Below, piece by piece: positions 30 to 45,787 of a DNA stretch of 45,947 nucleotides. Below the pieces are notes generated by a model. That model did not search any database and had not been told where the DNA came from. It worked only from the letters and a program-made list of their open reading frames with translations. Origin of the DNA: Vectrevirus NIC06P3; sequence record OZ035778.1. The stretch is one strand, 5' to 3'. A program made the translations under genes and the position numbers. How positions within the stretch are numbered: the stretch's first letter is position 1; every line of letters begins with the position of its first letter.

Positions 30-329
30 GTGAGCGTACACAATAAACATGCAGCTACAGAGGATGAGGTTGGCATTCTGCATGGTGCTATTACCAAAAT
101 CTTCAATAAGAAGGCACAGGCTATACTGGACACTATAGAAGATGACCCAGATGCAGCACTGCATTTAGTATCTGGTAAAGACATTGGTGCTATGTGCAAA
201 TGGGTTCTTGATAATGGTATTACCGCTACACCTGCTGCACAGCAGGAAGAGTCCAAGCTGTCTAAGCGCCTCAAGGCTATCCGAGAGGCATCCAGTGGTA
301 AGGTAATTCAATTCACTAAGGAGGATTGA
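30..329 (+). CDS. terminase small subunit (T7 gp18-like), GTG start
   Basis: 99-aa ORF directly upstream of the large terminase, stop overlapping its ATG; RBS GGAGGGA at 17-23; size and position fit terS. Function is by position only. Confidence 0.5.
   Translation: MSVHNKHAATEDEVGILHGAITKIFNKKAQAILDTIEDDPDAALHLVSGKDIGAMCKWVLDNGITATPAAQQEESKLSKRLKAIREASSGKVIQFTKED
125..142 (+). promoter_or_regulatory. phage-promoter-like core ACTGGACACTATAGAAGA inside terS coding sequence
   Basis: 17/17 match to the promoter core used elsewhere in this genome; upstream half deviates from consensus. Confidence 0.35.
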
Positions 330-2227
330 TGGCTAAGGCAAGAGAATCACAAGCAGAGGCTCTTGCCAGATGGGAGATGCTACAGGAGTTACAGCAGACC
401 TTTCCTTACACAGCGGAAGGTTTGCTTCTCTTTGCAGACACAGTTATTCATAACTTGATTGCGGGCAATCCTCATCTGATTCGTATGCAGGCCGATATCT
501 TAAAGTTCCTTTTCTACGGACACAAGTATCGCCTCATAGAAGCGCCTCGTGGTATCGCTAAAACAACACTATCAGCAATCTATACGGTATTCCGTATCAT
601 CCATGAACCACATAAGCGTATCATGGTTGTATCCCAAAACGCCAAGCGAGCAGAGGAAATCGCTGGTTGGGTGGTGAAAATCTTCCGTGGATTAGACTTC
701 CTTGAATTTATGCTACCTGATATCTACGCTGGGGACCGTGCATCCGTTAAGGCATTCGAGATTCATTACACACTACGTGGTAGTGACAAGTCTCCTTCTG
801 TGTCTTGCTATTCAATTGAAGCAGGTATGCAGGGTGCTCGTGCGGATATTATCCTAGCGGATGACGTAGAGTCGATGCAGAATGCTCGTACCGCAGCAGG
901 TCGTGCACTACTTGAGGAATTAACCAAGGAGTTTGAATCTATCAACCAGTTTGGTGATATCATTTATCTTGGTACACCTCAGAACGTAAACTCTATCTAC
1001 AACAACCTGCCTGCTCGTGGTTACTCTGTTCGCATCTGGACTGCACGTTACCCTTCAGTGGAGCAGGAGCAATGCTATGGTGACTTCCTTGCACCTATGA
1101 TTGTTCAAGATATGAAGGACAACCCAGCACTGCGCTCAGGTTATGGCTTGGATGGCAACAGTGGTGCACCTTGTGCACCGGAAATGTACGATGATGACGT
1201 CCTGATTGAGAAGGAAATCTCGCAGGGTGCTGCTAAGTTCCAGCTCCAATTCATGCTTAACACTCGCATGATGGATGCTGACCGCTACCCTCTACGCCTG
1301 AATAACCTTATCTTCACCTCATTCGGTACGGAGGAAGTCCCTGTGATGCCTACATGGAGCAATGACTCTATTAACATCATTGGCGATGCACCTAAGTATG
1401 GCAATAAACCTACAGACTTCATGTATCGACCTGTTGCCAGACCCTATGAGTGGGGTGCTGTTACCCGCAAGATTATGTATATCGACCCGGCGGGTGGCGG
1501 TAAGAATGGGGACGAAACGGGCGTGGCTATCGTCTTCCTGCATGGCACATTCATTTACGTATATCAGTGCTTCGGTGTGCCGGGCGGATACCGCGAATCG
1601 TCCCTGAATCGCATTGTGCAGGCCGCAAAGCAGGCAGGCGTTAAAGAGGTATTCATTGAGAAGAACTTCGGTCATGGCGCGTTTGAGGCAGTAATTAAGC
1701 CATACTTTGAACGAGAGTGGCCCGTTACACTGGAAGAGGATTACGCCACCGGACAGAAAGAGTTGCGTATCATTGAGACGCTGGAGCCGCTCATGGCGGC
1801 GCACAGGCTCATCTTCAACGCCGAGATGGTCAAGTCTGATCTTGAGTCAGTACAGCACTACCCGCTTGAATTACGCATGTCCTATAGCCTTTTCAATCAA
1901 ATGTCGAACATCACGACTGAGAAGAATAGCCTCCGGCATGATGACCGCTTAGACGCCCTGTATGGCGCTATACGGCAATTAACTTCTCAGATAGACTATG
2001 ACGAGGTTACACGGATTAATCGCCTCAGAGCGCAGGAGATGCGCGATTACATCCAAGCCATGAACACACCTCACCTCCGAAGGGCAATGCTCTATGGGGA
2101 CTATGGCACTGAGCGAAGAGTGACCAACACTTCTGTAGCGATGCAGCAGCGGGTTTACGGTCAGAATTACCGGAATAAGTCTTCCAATAGAAATACTATT
2201 TCTGCAAGGATTTCAAGGACTTATTAA
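329..2227 (+). CDS. terminase large subunit (T7 gp19-like)
   Basis: Motifs FRGIGKS-like APRGIAKTT, RADIILADDVE, IYLGTPQN, FQLQFMLN and HDDRLDAL match T7 gp19; RBS AAGGAGGA at 318-325. Confidence 0.9.
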   Translation: MAKARESQAEALARWEMLQELQQTFPYTAEGLLLFADTVIHNLIAGNPHLIRMQADILKFLFYGHKYRLIEAPRGIAKTTLSAIYTVFRIIHEPHKRIMVVSQNAKRAEEIAGWVVKIFRGLDFLEFMLPDIYAGDRASVKAFEIHYTLRGSDKSPSVSCYSIEAGMQGARADIILADDVESMQNARTAAGRALLEELTKEFESINQFGDIIYLGTPQNVNSIYNNLPARGYSVRIWTARYPSVEQEQCYGDFLAPMIVQDMKDNPALRSGYGLDGNSGAPCAPEMYDDDVLIEKEISQGAAKFQLQFMLNTRMMDADRYPLRLNNLIFTSFGTEEVPVMPTWSNDSINIIGDAPKYGNKPTDFMYRPVARPYEWGAVTRKIMYIDPAGGGKNGDETGVAIVFLHGTFIYVYQCFGVPGGYRESSLNRIVQAAKQAGVKEVFIEKNFGHGAFEAVIKPYFEREWPVTLEEDYATGQKELRIIETLEPLMAAHRLIFNAEMVKSDLESVQHYPLELRMSYSLFNQMSNITTEKNSLRHDDRLDALYGAIRQLTSQIDYDEVTRINRLRAQEMRDYIQAMNTPHLRRAMLYGDYGTERRVTNTSVAMQQRVYGQNYRNKSSNRNTISARISRTY

Positions 2228-2250
2228 TTACTGGACACTATAGAAGGAAG
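2223..2250 (+). promoter_or_regulatory. SP6-type phage promoter
   Basis: ATTAATTACTGGACACTATAGAAGGAAG; overlaps the terL stop codon. Confidence 0.7.
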
Positions 2251-2389
2251 ACCCAGAGGATAAGAGAAGTAATAAGGATAATATAGGTTAACCTAGGTTA
2301 TATAGGTATGCCTTAGTATGGGTGTACTCCTGTACACCCTATTCCTTACTTCCTTACTATATTTACATAATAGGAGAGAGAGAGAGACA

Positions 2390-2665
2390 ATGGCTAATGA
2401 TTATAGTAGTCAACCATTAACAGGTAAGTCTAAGAGAAAGCAGGTACAACCTGTAAGTGAAGAACTAATGCTTCCGGTAATCAAAAAAGAGGAAGCTAGT
2501 AAGAAAAGCAATGTTATTAATGATGCCACCAAATCAGGTAAACAGAAAGGGGCCATGGTATGCCTTGAAGTGGACGGTGCATTGAAGATTGCTATCGCTG
2601 TTGATGGCAAAGAAGATTCAGAGTGGAAGTTAGTGACAGGGGAACCTACTATTACCCCAGTTTAA
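2390..2665 (+). CDS. hypothetical protein, paralog family member 1
   Basis: ATG with RBS AGGAGAGAG; shares a roughly 45-aa motif (SGKQ.GAMV ... W) with the next two ORFs. Confidence 0.5.
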   Translation: MANDYSSQPLTGKSKRKQVQPVSEELMLPVIKKEEASKKSNVINDATKSGKQKGAMVCLEVDGALKIAIAVDGKEDSEWKLVTGEPTITPV

Positions 2666-2683
2666 GAGAAGGAGGAAGATTAC

Positions 2684-2971
2684 ATGGCTAAATATGGTAC
2701 TACAGGTTCTGTTACGGGTCAGGCTTTTCGAGTGAAAGCAGTACAAACTATTGCAACGGCAATTCCTATGCCTGTTGTTGCTGAAGAAGACCTTAAGAAG
2801 AAAGATCATCCTATCAACATCAAACATTTATCAGGTAAACAGAGAGGTGCAATGGTTGTTATTTCGAGAGCGGACACAACCGTGCATATTGCTGTTGCAC
2901 GTGGTAGTGAGCCCACCGACGTTTGGGATGTAACTACTATGGACCCCCTTGCTGTTACACCAGGGGAGTGA
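2684..2971 (+). CDS. hypothetical protein, paralog family member 2
   Basis: RBS GAAGGAGGAAG; motif LSGKQRGAMVVI ... TDVWD shared with neighbours. Confidence 0.55.
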   Translation: MAKYGTTGSVTGQAFRVKAVQTIATAIPMPVVAEEDLKKKDHPINIKHLSGKQRGAMVVISRADTTVHIAVARGSEPTDVWDVTTMDPLAVTPGE

Positions 2972-2978
2972 TATTATC

Positions 2979-3656
2979 GTGTTAGGTATTACAGGACAAC
3001 GAAGTGTAAGTCATCAAGCTAAGGTTGCCACGGAAGTGGCTCCTATCGTTGATATCTCAGATGTGTCTGACGTTAACTCTTATCTAAACCAAAAGTACCT
3101 ATCAGGTAAACAGGAAGGATATACTGTTCTGGCTAAGAAAGGTTCACGTTATTCATTGTATGCTGCAACAGGTTCTAAGCCAGAAGATAAGTGGTTGCCT
3201 TTAGAGCAAGCAACCTTACCTGATTCGAGTGCATTAGAGCTAATTGACACCATCGATGTTGAAGTTGCAAGTGCAAGCGACACAGTAGAGGTTAATGTAA
3301 CCAAAGAGAGGACTGTGTGCATCCAGACGCCTATGAAGGACTTAGCAGGTGATACAGTTTACCGGCAAGAATTGACTGCCAACATTAACCTTACCATTAA
3401 TGAAAACGGAAGCCCAAGCGATACGGTTAAATTAAACATATCAATTCCTAATTTGCCAGGAACATCTAGTGGGTCTTACTATACAGTTGACAATGTGCTG
3501 TGTACTTCTTTTGGAGACGACAGTCCTGTTATTGCCAATATAGATGTCGATAAGGCTACCACTAACTTGATTGCTGTTACACTTCGTAAAGAGACGGCAA
3601 CAGATATTAAGCTGTCTCTTGTAATTAGGTGGTCAATGCCAGTGGAGGTTGTATAA
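2979..3656 (+). CDS. hypothetical protein, paralog family member 3 with C-terminal extension
   Basis: Motif YLSGKQEGYTVL ... EDKWLP; start uncertain (GTG 2979 or TTG 2949); stop overlaps the endolysin ATG (TAATG). Confidence 0.45.
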   Translation: MLGITGQRSVSHQAKVATEVAPIVDISDVSDVNSYLNQKYLSGKQEGYTVLAKKGSRYSLYAATGSKPEDKWLPLEQATLPDSSALELIDTIDVEVASASDTVEVNVTKERTVCIQTPMKDLAGDTVYRQELTANINLTINENGSPSDTVKLNISIPNLPGTSSGSYYTVDNVLCTSFGDDSPVIANIDVDKATTNLIAVTLRKETATDIKLSLVIRWSMPVEVV

Positions 3657-4000
3657 TGCTTAACAAATACTTCAAGCGTAAAGAGTTTGCTTGCCGTTGT
3701 GGGTGCGGCACATCTACTGTTGATGCTGAGTTACTACAGGTAATCACAGATGTGCGTGAGCACTTTGGTTCTCCTGTAGTTATCACTTCTGGGCATCGCT
3801 GCGCCAAGCACAATGCTAATGTAGGTGGAGCTAAAAACTCCATGCATCTTACTGGTAAGGCTGCTGACATTAAGGTACGAGGCATCTTACCATCTGAAGT
3901 GCATAAGTATCTTACTGATAAGTACCAAGGCAAATATGGGATTGGTAAGTACAACTCCTTCACCCACATTGATGTACGGGATGGGTGTGCACGATGGTAG
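3656..4000 (+). CDS. endolysin, peptidase M15-type zinc peptidase
   Basis: KEFACRCGCG ... SGHRC.KHN ... SMHLTGKAAD motif set typical of M15 endolysins; RBS GGAGG at 3644-3648. Confidence 0.75.
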   Translation: MLNKYFKRKEFACRCGCGTSTVDAELLQVITDVREHFGSPVVITSGHRCAKHNANVGGAKNSMHLTGKAADIKVRGILPSEVHKYLTDKYQGKYGIGKYNSFTHIDVRDGCARW

Positions 4001-4669: not shown

Positions 4670-5923
4670 ATGGCTCTAACGAGGCTTAGTTCTGATTTAG
4701 TCCGTGACGCAAAAGATGGTGGCACGTTGGGAGAGTGCCTACACGGATTTATGTCATTCTCTCAAGCAAAAGAAATAACAGGCTCTGATCAAGCTGCAAT
4801 GGAGTACCTCTTCTCTAACGCAAAAGTTATCTACATCAACGAGTCTTTGACACTAACAGAGAAGATAACCACAGACAGAAGTTCCGAGGTTACGGTACTT
4901 ACAAAGCCAGGTGTTGTAATAAATAACCTAGGATACATGCCAACAACAAGAACAAACCCCAATCACGTGGTTTCTGGTTTGTCTGTTAGAAACAAATTCA
5001 AACAAGATAATCAGTCTATTAATGGCAGGGTTTATAGTAAGCAAGCTGCATCATTTGAAGCAGCGGTTCATGATGCTGTTAGCAACGGTGGTACTTCTTC
5101 ATCTGAAAACTTTGTTGCACTTTATTCTGGGATAGAGTTCTTTAATTCCACGCTGCAAAGAGGTTGGGCCTTCAACTCTGTAACCAACTGCCATGGTATG
5201 AATACCGGAGATGAGATGTATGGTTATGAGTTGGACTTCAACGTAGATGGCAACCTAGATGGTGGCGGTCAAGCAGTTGGCTTGTACATTGCAGGTATTG
5301 GTGATTTGCGTCAGTGTGCAAACTCTGATGGCATTCGTGTACAACGGACACGTGACCTTGGTGGATTGTATAAGTGGAACCATGGTATTCGAGTTTTTGA
5401 CTCTATGACAGGCCTTGCCGTGATAGATTCAGCTACATATTCCATATTCGCACAAGGTTCTGCCCCTATAGTAAGGCGTAAGGCTGTGCAGGATGGAGGT
5501 TGGAGCTACATCCATAGTCTTAGCCCTACTAATATAACTTGGGGTGTTGATGATTATGGCTACACTTACTCGCCTCGTCTGTATCTTGGGTCTGGTTCTG
5601 GTAAGTCTAAGAACAGGGTTAATCTAGAAGGTGGTGTTTCATTTTACACCACTAACAAACCTGTTGGTTGGGGTGACATTGCTGCTGGGGCTTCTGTAAC
5701 TAAAAACTTCACAGAGTTGTTTGGTCTTGAAGAAGGCGACTACTCTAAGGCGGTGTTTACTGTAGGTGAGTTCCGTGTGGCTAACTCTTACGGAAGTTTG
5801 TTTGTCACTGTCTACACTAACTCAGCAAAAACTCAGGGGTATGTTAAGGTTACTAACCTAGGCTCAACTACTGTAACAGGCGTTGGGATAGGGATCAACC
5901 TGTCAATCCAAAAGGCGGGATAA
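4670..5923 (+). CDS. tailspike / receptor-binding protein 1
   Basis: 418-aa ORF with its own promoter, RBS AAAGGAGGAAAC, MALT N-terminus and leader shared with the next tailspike; Gly/Ser/Thr-rich beta-type composition. Specificity unknown. Confidence 0.55.
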   Translation: MALTRLSSDLVRDAKDGGTLGECLHGFMSFSQAKEITGSDQAAMEYLFSNAKVIYINESLTLTEKITTDRSSEVTVLTKPGVVINNLGYMPTTRTNPNHVVSGLSVRNKFKQDNQSINGRVYSKQAASFEAAVHDAVSNGGTSSSENFVALYSGIEFFNSTLQRGWAFNSVTNCHGMNTGDEMYGYELDFNVDGNLDGGGQAVGLYIAGIGDLRQCANSDGIRVQRTRDLGGLYKWNHGIRVFDSMTGLAVIDSATYSIFAQGSAPIVRRKAVQDGGWSYIHSLSPTNITWGVDDYGYTYSPRLYLGSGSGKSKNRVNLEGGVSFYTTNKPVGWGDIAAGASVTKNFTELFGLEEGDYSKAVFTVGEFRVANSYGSLFVTVYTNSAKTQGYVKVTNLGSTTVTGVGIGINLSIQKAG

Positions 5924-6011
5924 TAGGTATGTGCGGCGTAAGCCGCACTTTACGCGAACTTTCTTTCTTCATAGGCACTCATGGTGGGTGTCTATAAACA
6001 AAGGAGGTTAC

Positions 6012-8006
6012 ATGGCTTTAACCAAAGCTACAACAGTTAATGCATATCAGGGGCGTCCACCCGTTGTAATCACTGATAGCGTCGAAGATAAGTTAATGGA
6101 TGGACGTGCTGGTCTTCGTAAGCACTTTGGTGCTGTTGGGGACGGGCAACATGATGATACAGACGCCTTTGAAAAATGGATGGATTGCCTAACAGATGCA
6201 ACATATAAGCGTTTAGGGGCATTTTCGGACGAACACCCATATATGCTACAGAAAGGGCCACAGCTCATGTTAGAAGATGGGGCTTTCGTGTATGCTGGCA
6301 AAGGTTTGAACATCCCTACCCATCATGCCTTTGTTCTAAACATAATTGGACAAAGTTCCTTATCTACAAAAATTATCCTACCAGAAGATGTGTACTTCTT
6401 GGATTTAGATAACAACCCTGTGTTTTCTTATATGTCAGGTATTACGTTCCATGGTGGACTAGGTGCTGTACGCATGAAGTCTAAGTCATGCAATGCAACA
6501 AGTATGCACATATTTGAGCGTCTACGTATGTCTAGGTATAAGCAGTGTGCCTTTAGTAACAACTCAATAGATATGCCTTACGTTAAAATCAGAGACTCAG
6601 TGTTTATGGGAGATGTATCCAGAGAGACAATTGGACTGTGCTTATCTGGCCTGTCTGCTGGTAGTGATATCACAGGGAATCAGTTCACTGATAACAGGTA
6701 TAATCTCAAGTTAGCTGTTGCAGACAATGGTGTAGAACGTAATGGACCACCAACGCCTCTAAACATAGTAGGTAATGATTTCTATCGGACAGGACACCGC
6801 TCAGGTGCATCTTATGATATTTGGATTGAACCAGGTAAAACAGCTACAAACTCAGGACGGGGACTTGTTTTACAACGTAATAAGTTTGGGCAGGAGAACC
6901 TAAAGAGTCCAGATGCACACATTCTCATTGCAGATAGTGGGACAGGGCAAGGTGGTGATTTAAATGGGGACAGAATGCATGTAGAGACAAAATCTTCTGG
7001 ATTTGTGTCAGGCATTCTTTCAGAAGGCAACAATGTTAACTCTATCAATGGAAGTTACACTGCACCATACATCCGTAGCTTCACACCTAACTTTGGTAAC
7101 AATAAGATCCATGATATTTATGACAATGGAATGCCGTCTCGTATAGTAGAGTTCGCAGGTGGTATTACGCAAAGTGAAGTGGTTAATATATCTCGCACTA
7201 ATATGCTTGAGATTGATCAGTCTCTTGCCCTCCAGAAAGGGGATGTACCTAATTTATTGTCTAACCTAGATGGTGTGTTTCGTGTAAGGGATGATTTGGG
7301 TCTGTTGGCAGGACACCCTCAAGTGCACGACACACCAACCGGTTCTCAGATGTCAGATTTTCTGCATGTATATAAAGGACCAACATCTAGTCTTGCTGTT
7401 GCAGAAGCAACGCGCTTGGCTATTGATAACTCCTATGGAGGTAAAAATGAGGCAGCAGAGTTCACTATGACAACGGAAGATGGACGTGCAGTTGCAACGG
7501 TGACAGGGCTTGTTGCTGGTGATACTTTCTGGTTAGATTTTGAGGTAAAGAGATCTGCTGACAATGCGGCCCCTCGTGTGCTCTTCGAGGTACTAGATTC
7601 AAGTGCGAGTACCTTACTTCTTCGAAGGACTATACTGTTAGATGCGAAGCAGAGATGGCAGAAAGTTGTGCTACCTTTTGTGCCAAACAGTTCTGGTAGT
7701 ATCTTTGTTCGCTTTAAGGCGAAAGGTTGGACACCTTCTAATAAGAAGTTTCAAGTAGGAAACCTTAATGTATACCGCAACCATACACCAGTTAACACTG
7801 GACATAATGGAGGTTTATCTTCCTCTTGGAGTTCACAGCACATCCTTATTGGGTCTTACCACTTATGGGTAGATGCAACTGGCGCATTGCGTATCAAAGA
7901 TGGCGCACCTACGTCTGTTAACGATGGTGTCATCGTTGGCAGTCAGTCAGAAAGTGTTAGCCAACAAGTATCGGGTGATGGTATACAAACCATTGATAGT
8001 GTCTAA
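6012..8006 (+). CDS. tailspike 2, pectate-lyase-like beta-helix (probable polysaccharide depolymerase)
   Basis: HFGAVGDGQHDDTDAFEKW motif typical of right-handed beta-helix tailspikes; RBS AAAGGAGG; MALT N-terminus. Confidence 0.65.
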   Translation: MALTKATTVNAYQGRPPVVITDSVEDKLMDGRAGLRKHFGAVGDGQHDDTDAFEKWMDCLTDATYKRLGAFSDEHPYMLQKGPQLMLEDGAFVYAGKGLNIPTHHAFVLNIIGQSSLSTKIILPEDVYFLDLDNNPVFSYMSGITFHGGLGAVRMKSKSCNATSMHIFERLRMSRYKQCAFSNNSIDMPYVKIRDSVFMGDVSRETIGLCLSGLSAGSDITGNQFTDNRYNLKLAVADNGVERNGPPTPLNIVGNDFYRTGHRSGASYDIWIEPGKTATNSGRGLVLQRNKFGQENLKSPDAHILIADSGTGQGGDLNGDRMHVETKSSGFVSGILSEGNNVNSINGSYTAPYIRSFTPNFGNNKIHDIYDNGMPSRIVEFAGGITQSEVVNISRTNMLEIDQSLALQKGDVPNLLSNLDGVFRVRDDLGLLAGHPQVHDTPTGSQMSDFLHVYKGPTSSLAVAEATRLAIDNSYGGKNEAAEFTMTTEDGRAVATVTGLVAGDTFWLDFEVKRSADNAAPRVLFEVLDSSASTLLLRRTILLDAKQRWQKVVLPFVPNSSGSIFVRFKAKGWTPSNKKFQVGNLNVYRNHTPVNTGHNGGLSSSWSSQHILIGSYHLWVDATGALRIKDGAPTSVNDGVIVGSQSESVSQQVSGDGIQTIDSV

Positions 8007-8670: not shown

Positions 8671-9590
8671 AGGCGTGTGTGAGCTCTCTCGCCCTCGCCC
8701 TCGCCGGGTTGCCCCCCCCCCCCCCCGCCCCCCCCCGCCGCGCCGGGGGCCGGGGGGGGGGCGGGGGGCGGGGGGGGGGCCGGGCCCGCCGCGCGCCGCC
8801 ACCCGGGAGGAGGCCCCCGCGGCCGTAGACGCGCTGTGCCTGAGCGTCCCCGCCGCGGCCGAGACGGCCCTGCGGCGTCTCCTGGTCGGGGAGGCCGCGG
8901 CGCCTCAGCGCGAGGACGCCGGGTCGACGGCGGCGGCGCCGGCCGGACCGGGCTCCTCCTCGGGCGAGCCCGGCGAGGGCGCGCTCACGGACCAGGCCAG
9001 CCAGAGCCCCAGCGCGTAGAGCGGCAGACCCATCACGAGACGGGCGACGCCCAGGGCCGTCGCCGCGTCCGCGAGGTAGAGCGGCACCTGCACGCCCAGC
9101 CGCAGCGCGAAGACGGCCGCCATCACCCAGGTGGCCGCCGCGTAGGCGCGCCGGCGGCGGGGGTCCGCACGCCATGCGGTCCCCTCCCCGCGCACGAGGC
9201 CGAGGATCAGGCCCACCACGGGCCAGCCCGCGAGGATCGAGACGAGGAACGCGAGGCCGTAGCCGGCGTTCGTGATGAAGCCCCAGAGGTAGTAGTCCCG
9301 GGCCTGCCCCGTGGTCAGGGCCACCGCCACCGAGAGCACGACGACGACGAGCCCGGCCAGGACCTGCGCGGGCGACTGGCGCTGCGCGAGCCGGACCACG
9401 CCCATGAGGACGGCCACGCCCGCGGCGGCCACGCCCGAGGGCCACACCTGCTGGGCCCCCGTGGTTTGGGGGGGTCGTTGTGGTCTGAATCCGCGCGTTT
9501 TCACAATGTAAATTTTTTTTTTTGAGGGGTGGTTGTGCCCGCCCCCCCCGCCCCCCGGGGGGGGCCCCCCCCCCCCCCCCCCCCCCATAT
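8671..9590. other. foreign high-GC block bounded by C/G homopolymer tracts (probable chimeric/artefactual insert)
   Basis: Abrupt composition shift; C16/C8/G10-type runs at 8711-8790 and a C22 run at 9565-9586; T11 run at 9514-9524; minus-strand frame reads like a truncated polytopic membrane protein. Confidence 0.6.
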
Positions 9591-22865: not shown

Positions 22866-23243
22866 ATGTCTATGGTAACTACTCTGGTATACGTAGCTCG
22901 ATGCTTTCGTGGTCTGGCTTATAAATTCAAGTTAAAGGCTATCACAGCTATTAAGTTTCGCATCGAAGCAGTACAGGCAGAACAAGTCAAAGTTGAAGAA
23001 CACCGTAGTTCTCAAATGATTGACTGCCATAATCGCTACTATGCATCTCGTGATGACCTGAATGCACGTCAAGTCAAAGAGGTTGAAGAGATGTTAGCAC
23101 GTCACCAGCAAGAGCGTGACAACCTGAAAGCCGCCTTCGAAGAGAACAAGGCAGTCATTGCCCTTGTACATCAAGCTGCATCTGACAGTCTGAAGAAAGA
23201 GATTGTTATGCTGGAGATTGAACTGGACAACCTGACCAAGTAA
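22866..23243 (+). CDS. hypothetical protein (coiled-coil)
   Basis: RBS TAGGAGG; 125 aa. Confidence 0.5.
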   Translation: MSMVTTLVYVARCFRGLAYKFKLKAITAIKFRIEAVQAEQVKVEEHRSSQMIDCHNRYYASRDDLNARQVKEVEEMLARHQQERDNLKAAFEENKAVIALVHQAASDSLKKEIVMLEIELDNLTK

Positions 23244-33290: not shown

Positions 33291-33316
33291 TATTTACTGG
33301 ACACTATAGAAGGGAG
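33291..33316 (+). promoter_or_regulatory. phage promoter (capsid)
   Basis: TATTTACTGGACACTATAGAAGGGAG; followed by 5' stem-loop AGGGAGA-AATA-TCTCCCT. Confidence 0.8.
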
Positions 33317-44500: not shown

Positions 44501-44813
44501 AATGGGCATGATGAGTACAACTGCTGTATTTAGCCTAGGTGGAGATTTCTTAGGGGGCTTAGGTGTTTTACCTTCCGAACTCATTCAATCACGTTATGAA
44601 GCGGGTTTCCAAAGCAAAGGACTGATTGACCAGATACCGCTAGTTGGCGTTGGTGCAGATGCAGTTAATCTGGCTAACTCAATTAAGAAGTATGCAGAAG
44701 GTGACACAGAAGGCGTAGATATTGCTAGGCGAGCACTACGTCTTGTGCCACTTACCAATGTAATAGGTGTCCAGAACGCATTGCGTTATGGCTTAGATGA
44801 ACTGGAGGACTGA
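41505..44813 (+). CDS. large internal virion/core protein (T7 gp16-like)
   Basis: 1102 aa; last of three consecutive internal-protein genes before the tail-fibre adaptor. Confidence 0.7.
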   Translation: MEQDIKTNWAGYVQSTPEPFSIEAAPVSAPTIRQRNELQEQVLEAKADADILGAVGAAFQNEWLAFGGKRWYDRATADFPPQPDFEIQPDRREALRFKYGTDMMQKITEGVRSEDELNFRIQNADDDLERNKRIAQAGWVGSVATIGAAVLDPVGWVASIPTGGAAKVGLVGRAVRGAVAAGVSNAAIESVLVQGDMTRDLDDIMVALGSGMAMGGVIGAVARGRATKLSEQGDDRAASVVRSADAGDRYVRAVADDSIGAMRVKGAEVLTEGAFDISSKGEDLLKTLQREGNAIDMTPRRWAGTMSALGTVVHSSQDASVRGLGARLFESPQGLGMQKASASLMQNTNLNRLKSADMNRFNDGFDLWLKENNINPVAGHTNSHYVQQYNEKVWEAVRIGMDESTPKSIRMAAEGQQAMYREALALRQRSGEAGFEKVKADDKYMPDIFDSMKARRQFGMHDKEDIIELFSRAYQNGSRKVPKEVADEIARAQVNRVVDATLTGRMSFEKAMSGQTKAEYEAIMRKAGFSDEEIEKMVEALDNKETRDNISNRAKMSLGLDVTQEYKGIRMRDFMNTNVEELTDNYMKEAAGGAALARQGFSTYQAALNAIDLVERNARNAAKDTKAHAQFEAESAKIRQSEPDYKKAQEQIEELKKRLKLKEKDEAAGLAIDEEIRQMREGLRLIMGKSIDADPQALSTKMLRRGRDITGVLRLGQMGFAQLGELANFMGEFGIAATTIALGKQFRFTSKALRNGDGFFRDKNLAEVERMVGYIGEDNWLTTKGARPDEFGDVTTVRGMMAHFDQSMNSIRRAQTNLSLFRMAQGSLERMTNRQIALSFIDHLEGKKVIPQKKLEELGLTQEFMSSLQKHYDANSKGSGLLGFDTMPYAMGETLANAIRRKSGLIIQRNFIGDEGIWMNKALGKTFAQLKSFSLVSGEKQFGRGIRHDKIGLAKKTAFGFALGSMVYAAKAYVNSIGREDQDEYLEEKLSPKGLAFGAMGMMSTTAVFSLGGDFLGGLGVLPSELIQSRYEAGFQSKGLIDQIPLVGVGADAVNLANSIKKYAEGDTEGVDIARRALRLVPLTNVIGVQNALRYGLDELED

Positions 44814-45787
44814 TGGGTTATACTTTCACAGAACACACAGCCAACGGTACGCAAGTGACTTATCCTTTTAGGTTTGCTGGTAGGGATAAGGGTTATCTTC
44901 GTGCCTCAGATGTAAGAGTGGATACTCTTCAAGGGGAGACTTGGACCAAGGTCACATCTGGCTGGCAATTAACTGGTACAAACCAGATTACTTTTGATGT
45001 AGCACCAGCAGCAGGTTTGAGGATCCGTATTCGAAGGGAAGTGCCAAAAGAAAACCCATATGCAGAGTTTGACCGTGGTGTCACCCTTGATATGAAATCT
45101 TTGAATGGTTCCTTTATTCACAACCTAGAGGCAACCCAAGAGCTTCTAGATGGGTTTTACCCTGAAGGTTATTATATCAAGCAAAATGTATCATGGGGTG
45201 GTAATAAGATCACTGACCTTGCAGATGGCACAGCACCGAATGATGCAGTGAATAAAGGACAGATGGACGCCCTTGATAAGAAACACACAGACTGGAATAA
45301 GACGCAAGATGAGCAGATTGATGGTATCATTCGTAGCTTCGTCAGTAACATATCTCACCGTTCTGCACCTTGGACTTATTTAGCTGTGGGTGGTGAAGAT
45401 AAGGTAAAACCTCCTTTCGTCTTCCGAGCAGCACTAGTGTGGCGCGATGGTGTATATCAGGATGAGCAAGCTGGTGCTTTTGAAATTAGAGATAATACTA
45501 TATTTCTAGCTAAGCCTTTGCTTAGAAAAGGCGAGCGCGTGTCTGTTCTCCTTGGTTCTCGTGTAGCAGTACCAGACAAAGGTGAGGTTCTCCAGCTTGA
45601 GTTCAACACAGTGGCAGGCTATACGGAGATAAATCTAGGTATGCGTGTATCAGAGGTGTCTGTCTTTCTTGATGGGCTTCTCCAATCTCTAGGCTCTTAC
45701 GAACTTATAGATGACAATAAGTTGGTATTTAGTGAGCCACTACCAGATTGCACCGTGCTGGTTCAAGTTAAATCTGATACAAAGTAG
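44813..45787 (+). CDS. tail-fibre-like adaptor protein (homolog of the T7 gp17 N-terminal domain)
   Basis: TYPFRFAGRDKGYLRASDV and GNKITDLADGTAPNDAVNKGQMDAL parallel the T7 gp17 N-terminal segments; 324 aa with no long fibre shaft. Confidence 0.7.
   Translation: MGYTFTEHTANGTQVTYPFRFAGRDKGYLRASDVRVDTLQGETWTKVTSGWQLTGTNQITFDVAPAAGLRIRIRREVPKENPYAEFDRGVTLDMKSLNGSFIHNLEATQELLDGFYPEGYYIKQNVSWGGNKITDLADGTAPNDAVNKGQMDALDKKHTDWNKTQDEQIDGIIRSFVSNISHRSAPWTYLAVGGEDKVKPPFVFRAALVWRDGVYQDEQAGAFEIRDNTIFLAKPLLRKGERVSVLLGSRVAVPDKGEVLQLEFNTVAGYTEINLGMRVSEVSVFLDGLLQSLGSYELIDDNKLVFSEPLPDCTVLVQVKSDTK

Follow-up and report, generated by a model that had tools for sequence, protein, structure and literature searches.

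The three consecutive plus-strand genes that lie 3' of the large terminase and 5' of the M15 endolysin in this Vectrevirus genome (here called A, B and C) encode, in the explanation that we favor with moderate confidence, a late accessory module of the virion surface: a new anchoring or trimerization domain would act in threes, and gene C would add a distal binding head. The most likely function is of a known kind (accessory virion fibers or decoration), carried by an anchor domain that is new. Several aspects of the locus bear on this idea, among them the modular relatives of the domain, the conserved arrangement of the genes in SP6-like phages, the predicted fold of gene C and the unusual evolution of A and B.

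The window, by which we mean the whole stretch of 45,947 nucleotides analyzed, is essentially a whole genome, circularly permuted and starting inside the small-terminase gene. It belongs to Vectrevirus, in the K1-5/K1E group of the Molineuxvirinae (Autographiviridae), and over positions 2200-3700 is ~98% identical to phages KAW1A4500, UTI89UKE2/3 and fTuEco01. The flanking genes, which an earlier note on this DNA had read as terminase and endolysin, bear that reading out in Pfam searches (Table 1). The gene C stop codon overlaps the endolysin start (TAATG), and the endolysin may possibly be translationally coupled to gene C. In some close relatives the terminase region contains a gene for an HNH homing endonuclease, in the terS/terL gap in mutPK1A2 and in the holin/terS gap in ACG-C91 (comparison coordinates L001:700-1032 and L043:16959-17345, against the 329-326 junction of the window); it is absent from the window and from K1-5.

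Table 1. Coordinates of genes A, B and C, their neighbors, putative expression signals and receptor-binding genes in the window.
Feature	Position	Strand	Evidence or remark
Large terminase, T7-type (terL)	326-2227	+	Pfam PF22530, 2e-35
SP6/K1-5-type phage RNA-polymerase promoter-like site, GGACACTATAGAAGGAAG	2233-2250	+	Directly after the terL stop codon
All SP6/K1-5-type promoter-like sites	2233, 18375, 19222, 22786, 24830, 27968, 33299	+	
G+C-rich hairpin, putative terminator or RNA-processing site	2320-2339	+	Fold of 2300-2365, -17.0 kcal/mol
Gene A, 91 aa + stop, single anchor domain, K1-5 gp41 ortholog	2390-2665	+	phrog_2725, E=8.1e-38
Gene B, 95 aa, single anchor domain, K1-5 gp42 ortholog	2684-2971	+	phrog_2725, E=2.9e-42
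Gene C, whole, 225 aa, GTG start	2979-3656	+	phrog_2725, E=2.8e-16 (N-terminal domain)
Gene C, N-terminal anchor domain, aa 1-86	2979-3236	+	HMM domain at residues 1-86
Gene C, linker and predicted C-terminal beta-sandwich head, aa 87-225, stop	3237-3656	+	
Endolysin, Peptidase_M15_3 (context)	3656-4000	+	Pfam PF08291, E=3.8e-33; start overlaps gene C end
Tailspike-like genes	4670-5920 and 6009-8003		
gp37-type adaptor	44813-45787		

Pairwise alignment and profile search confirm that A, B and C are paralogs, at a level far above chance: BLASTP matches A to B at E=1e-14 (34% identity over 93 residues), B to C at E=2e-8 and A to C at E=4e-4, and the single profile phrog_2725 is matched by all three alike. 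The earlier note had proposed this paralogy from a common motif of roughly 45 residues; the shared block is real, but the homology extends over ~85-90 residues. Its ORFs also hold, with the lengths that it gave for B and C, whereas its 92 residues for A should be 91 plus the stop. The common block comprises an N-terminal TGQxxR arm, then P-V-V, N, LSGKQxGAxV, AxG and W; invariant or nearly so are T-G-(Q) and R in the arm, followed by P, N, S-G-K-Q, G, V, A, G and W. Genes A and B are 91% and 85% identical, respectively, to K1-5 genes 41 and 42, and 100 orthologs of gene B were found. Gene C matches PHROG 32357, a family of long third-slot proteins, over its full length (residues 1-225, E=3.3e-120), and has full-length relatives at ~30% identity in CrRp3, R4596 and Klebsiella and Salmonella phages. 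All gene C homologs begin with MLG(I/V)TGQ, and we place the gene C start at the GTG at 2979 since this agrees with the MLGITGQ N-terminus of homologs and with the annotation in relatives. A search for transmembrane segments in the three proteins found none.

The family had not been recognized from the letters alone, and it is indeed uncharacterized. Pfam at E<=10 gave no match for A, B or C except a sub-threshold DUF3046, and no match to any enzyme family; NCBIfam, searched with the proteins and with their profiles, gave nothing significant; PADLOC gave no defense-family match; and a PDB sequence search gave nothing beyond a chance GK..G..V match to alcohol dehydrogenase (E 0.7). The gp41/gp42 homologs do have a name, "acetyl-CoA acetyltransferase", which is both the RefSeq product name (NC_008152.1, NC_047889.1, NC_019542.1, NC_019403.1 and others) and the description of PHROG 2725, and which can be followed back at least as far as K1E gp42 ("putative acetyl-CoA acetyltransferase"). 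The case for A and B as thiolases consists of these propagated names. Thiolases are ~390 aa long, against 91-95 aa here, and the thiolase domains PF00108 and PF02803 are absent from A and B (Pfam, E<=10). Given this size, no thiolase signature at all, and no match for A or B in Pfam, NCBIfam or the PDB sequences, we consider the enzyme identity refuted, with next to no chance of being correct, and the name an annotation error. Genes of the gp41/gp42 type occur in at least 146 phage records, where they are either hypothetical or mislabeled.

The A-B-C block has the appearance of a late transcription unit. Seven promoter-like sites of the SP6/K1-5 type (GGACACTATAGAAG...) are found in the window, against 0.03 expected by chance, and the one at 2233 differs at 1 of 18 positions from that at 33299, upstream of the major capsid gene. 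The promoter-like sites that precede gene A, position 22866 and the capsid gene are near-identical. The 2233-2250 site would drive the A-B-C block, the endolysin perhaps included. The hairpin that lies between it and gene A carries a putative-terminator annotation in phages KAW1A4500 and R4596. The Shine-Dalgarno sites are strong (AGGAG before gene A, GGAGG before gene B). Judging by sequence alone (the promoter-like site, the Shine-Dalgarno sites and the layout), the block is late and probably well expressed.

In a search of 1.84 billion representative proteins with a profile of the domain, 262 relatives reached E<=1e-3, of which 113 also reached E<=1e-10. The retrieved proteins have three layouts: single domains of about 85-100 aa; exactly three tandem domains, in 32 proteins, with more than three in none; and one N-terminal domain with a C-terminal extension. 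In P0170 and P0173, three domains are followed by an extension, the single-chain equivalent of a short, a second short and a long gene. Among the extensions, at least 12 classes without relation to one another can be told apart, including collagen triple-helix repeats (P0224; PF01391, 1e-13, 22 GXY triplets), an Sf6-type tail-needle knob (P0167; PF16532, 1.7e-30) and an Ig domain (P0191; Ig_3, 2.5e-8). Collagen and needle-knob modules are obligate trimers. The domain 3' of the collagen repeats in P0224 is also found in N4-like and Aeromonas phage proteins, some of them labeled collagen-like or needle-knob. Comparison by hhalign of three head classes (those of gene C, of P0151 and of the needle knob) gave a probability of 0.4%, from which we take them to be unrelated; in Pfam there was also no match to PF16532 in gene C of the window, and none to PF03906 (Phage_T7_tail) in A, B or C. 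Domains 1, 2 and 3 of the fused proteins correspond only marginally to A, B and C by identity (d2-d2 0.31, vs 0.25-0.28); with orthology by position this weak, a strict A+B+C heterotrimer is at best a possibility.

The arrangement of the locus follows a simple rule in SP6-like phages. The position between terL and the M15 endolysin is shared by K1-5, mutPK1A2, KAW1A4500, PP1, NTNC80A, ACG-C91 and R4596, and by 23 IMG/VR loci. Two short family genes follow terL in 27/27 SP6-like loci; a third is present in 12 of the 27, long (225-233 aa) in nine and short in three, as in SP6 and PP1, and K1-5 is without gene C. The same third slot holds the collagen, Ig and 438-aa forms, with two short family genes on the terL side of it and the M15 endolysin on the other. 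The A/B pair is conserved in all 27 loci, and the duplication is ancient: the local duplication and divergence that the earlier note had suspected are real, but not the work of a recent event. In distant T7-like metagenomic contigs, whose terL is 41-44% identical, a triple-domain fusion lies directly after terL, syntenic with A-B-C. The gene context of the fused proteins comes from exact-protein look-ups, on short contigs only, and a locus search for relatives of these proteins found none. One distant T7-like contig (L029:540-2627; Logan contig ERR13828790_148558) has two consecutive family genes after terL, the first for a 283-aa triple-domain protein and the second for a 407-aa protein with three domains and a 130-aa extension, making six anchor domains in a row.

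Predicted structures give some indication of what the parts may look like. In the AF2 model of gene B, residues 1-24 are disordered and a small beta-sheet domain spans residues 30-85; the gene C model reaches a pLDDT of ~90 for residues 20-76. The extension of gene C had been described as rich in Ser, Thr, Asp and Val, and its composition (T 12%, V 12%, I, D and S ~9% each) agrees, but a low-complexity reading was rejected: structure prediction, which the earlier note had suggested as a check for a beta-sandwich, gives a folded C-terminal beta-sandwich with pLDDT mostly 75-90. The predicted head resembles the tail-fiber tips of R-type pyocin and Acinetobacter phage AP22, and has structural likeness to the Det7 tailspike, reovirus sigmaC/sigma1 heads, adenovirus fiber knobs, and lactococcal and Listeria phage receptor-binding heads. 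Scores are modest and identities low, and these matches indicate a fiber-tip-like fold class, not homology.

In the arrangement that we propose, each copy would begin with an N-terminal arm (TGQxxR) that is conserved and intrinsically disordered, and continue with a small beta-sheet core (LSGKQxGAxV...AxG...W). Grouped in threes, the domain would form an anchoring and trimerizing base, for which the particle would offer a docking site of three-fold or pseudo-three-fold symmetry. A and B would each supply a base with nothing attached; the two would co-evolve and probably act together. C would fill the conserved third slot, in which some phages have no gene, others a bare domain and others again a domain with an exchangeable module at its distal end. 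In this phage, the module would be a fiber-tip-like beta-sandwich that, without involvement of the tailspikes, would most likely bind a ligand on the host surface or in the environment. We infer location on the virion, assembly in three copies and ligand binding from three features: the domain is repeatedly found N-terminal to obligate-trimer fiber modules and to surface modules, strictly three-domain fusions occur at the syntenic position, and the third slot is conserved and bears a variable module.

A and B are the fastest-evolving late genes, the receptor-binding set excepted. Among genomes in which terL, the portal, the tube and the internal proteins keep 93-100% identity to those of the window, identity falls to 48-69% for A and 52-74% for B. 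Pairwise dN/dS is 0.16-0.53 for A (1.65 in the closest pairs, which have few substitutions) and 0.19-0.62 for B (1.29 in the closest pair), vs 0.01-0.08 for portal, MCP, tube A and terL and 0.03-0.22 for the endolysin. When co-divergence was compared for 17 genes in 14 genomes, A-B alone stood out as a pair, with MCP, adaptor, tube and internal proteins at background or giving no signal. The Spearman correlation of A and B divergence is 0.95 across 27 loci and 0.73 across all pairs of the 14 genomes, and the two track each other far better than they do flanking genes. Co-variation of A/B is absent with MCP (r 0.16-0.18) and with the variable part of the adaptor (r ~0.2), so that no binding partner emerges. 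Gene C can be decoupled from the pair, as in mutPK1A2, where it is 96% identical, against 52% for A and 64% for B. That A and B evolve fast and in step agrees with their being exposed and interacting, and the pair is likely to be an interface with host or environmental selection. The earlier suggestion of a decoration or adaptor family, or of a diversifying host-interaction module, is partly supported by these values, as well as by the collagen, knob and Ig relatives and the fiber-tip-like head of gene C.

Another possibility, which we think unlikely but not negligible, is that A, B and C are non-virion late proteins acting in or on the infected cell, as counter-defense proteins, decoys or triggers, or lysis modulators, and that their divergence reflects an arms race. 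Their small size and solubility, their high dN/dS and the frequent replacement of their alleles in genomes that otherwise hardly differ would all be expected of such proteins; the genes stand directly upstream of endolysin, holin and spanin, with gene C running into the endolysin start; and neither structural-protein annotation nor proteomic detection of A, B or C was found. It is hard to square with the strict three-domain architecture, however, or with the fusion of the same domain to collagen, an Sf6 tail-needle knob, Ig and fiber-tip-like heads, and lysis genes of the K1-5 type work beside two family genes only. The PADLOC result also speaks against it, though PADLOC does not model anti-defense proteins. 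A role as assembly factors or chaperones for the tailspikes or the adaptor, absent from the mature particle, seems quite improbable. The genes are late and share the right-end region with the tailspikes, their products are small with a disordered conserved arm, and the family is limited to T7-supergroup phages with adaptor-mounted spikes or fibers; but no co-variation of the A/B alleles with the adaptor is seen (r ~0.2-0.5), gene C is 96-99% identical among phages with different hosts and spikes (phages isolated on Raoultella and on K1 E. coli, and the window), and distal collagen, knob and Ig modules would make no sense on a chaperone.

Assuming instead that A, B and C are virion-surface proteins, two kinds of docking site suggest themselves. 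Three paralogs that could match non-equivalent sites, a strong promoter and an Ig-bearing relative suggest the three-fold positions of the capsid; needle-knob and fiber-tip heads, together with neighboring tailspike genes, suggest the tail or neck. That A and B do not co-vary with MCP speaks mildly against capsid docking, and the high dN/dS would be unusual for a simple capsid cement, which counts against our favored explanation. Against it, too, a search of the literature found no virion proteomics or structure for any family member, and low-resolution cryo-EM of K1E, K1-5 and SP6 is not known to have shown extra surface proteins. A bolder version, which we offer tentatively, is that the module is a novel docking platform on the virion of SP6/K1-5-type phages in the T7 supergroup and of their metagenomic relatives, in which three copies of the ~85-aa domain carry interchangeable heads in the third slot, and which would be a third recognition system under diversifying selection. 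The platform could then, with similar tentativeness, be built from three genes, from a homotrimer or from one triple-repeat chain, with beta-sandwich, collagen-knob, needle-knob or Ig heads.

The receptor-binding set of the window phage may itself be unusual, as its sequences suggest. The N-terminal 150 aa of the adaptor are conserved (~87% identity), and its C-terminal part is ~41-43% identical to most Vectrevirus and 92% to the IMG/VR contig L020. Pfam gave no match for either of the tailspike-like proteins, and their N-termini, compared with 27 loci, gave a single weak match of 41% (TSP2, in L020). Another peculiarity of the window is an insert of ~865 bp at 8717-9581, with 71-82% G+C (genome ~45%) and bordered by long poly-C/poly-G runs. 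It is absent from 13/13 compared relatives, in which 8716 and 9582 are contiguous, and its location coincides exactly with the physical end of the genome and the terminal repeat (position 26 of mutPK1A2 aligns with 9583, and the right end of ACG-C91 with 8686). Most likely it is an assembly chimera or junk joined at the termini, and not phage sequence.

K1-5, K1E and SP6-like phages are models for capsule targeting and are used in therapy and engineering, and in at least 146 phages the two or three late genes of this locus, by their signals strongly expressed, have had no known role and a wrong enzyme name. If they do encode a surface platform with a swappable head, this would open a new way to engineer host range or display, account for some of the adsorption and host-range behavior that the tailspikes leave unexplained, define a new protein domain family and correct a widely propagated annotation error. 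If the bolder version is right as well, these phages would have a means of host or environment recognition independent of the tailspikes, the third such system. In the searchable literature we found no description of the domain as a family, of its triple or modular architectures, of the third-slot rule or of the evolutionary signature.

The closest parallels to the proposed arrangement are trimeric accessory fibers with an N-terminal base on capsid or neck, such as phi29 gp8.5 and T4 fibritin (wac). Like these, the module would combine a small trimeric base at the N-terminus with a distal tip and, in some cases, a shaft (collagen in P0224), and it is dispensable or accessory, gene C being absent from K1-5. 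Unlike them, A, B and C have no similarity to gp8.5 or wac in sequence or fold, and the putative base also occurs by itself (A, B) or as a single-chain triple repeat. Lambda gpD, phage L Dec, and T4 Soc and Hoc are likewise small late proteins. The first three are trimers at (quasi) three-fold sites, gpD has a flexible N-terminal arm in use, and three paralogs could match non-equivalent trimer sites; T4 Hoc displays Ig domains, as does the relative P0191. No fold or sequence similarity of A, B or C to these known decoration families was found. The C-terminal knob (PF16532) of the P22/Sf6 tail needle gp26 is the one found on the anchor domain of P0167, and, like gp26, the module here would be a trimeric unit inserted into a tail component of higher symmetry; the gene C head of the window lacks this knob, however, there is no coiled-coil needle shaft, and we know of no needle in T7-like nozzles. 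The N-terminal domain of T7 gp17 and the K1-5 gp37 adaptor come from the same supergroup of phages, and these proteins also join a modular N-terminal virion-binding domain (proposed in our case) to exchangeable distal parts. Theirs is a different domain, PF03906, and the window has its own adaptor of this type as a separate gene, the variation of which does not track A and B. For the predicted gene C head, the nearest candidate analogues in fold are the fiber tips of R-type pyocin and AP22 and the heads of reovirus sigma1/sigmaC and adenovirus fibers.
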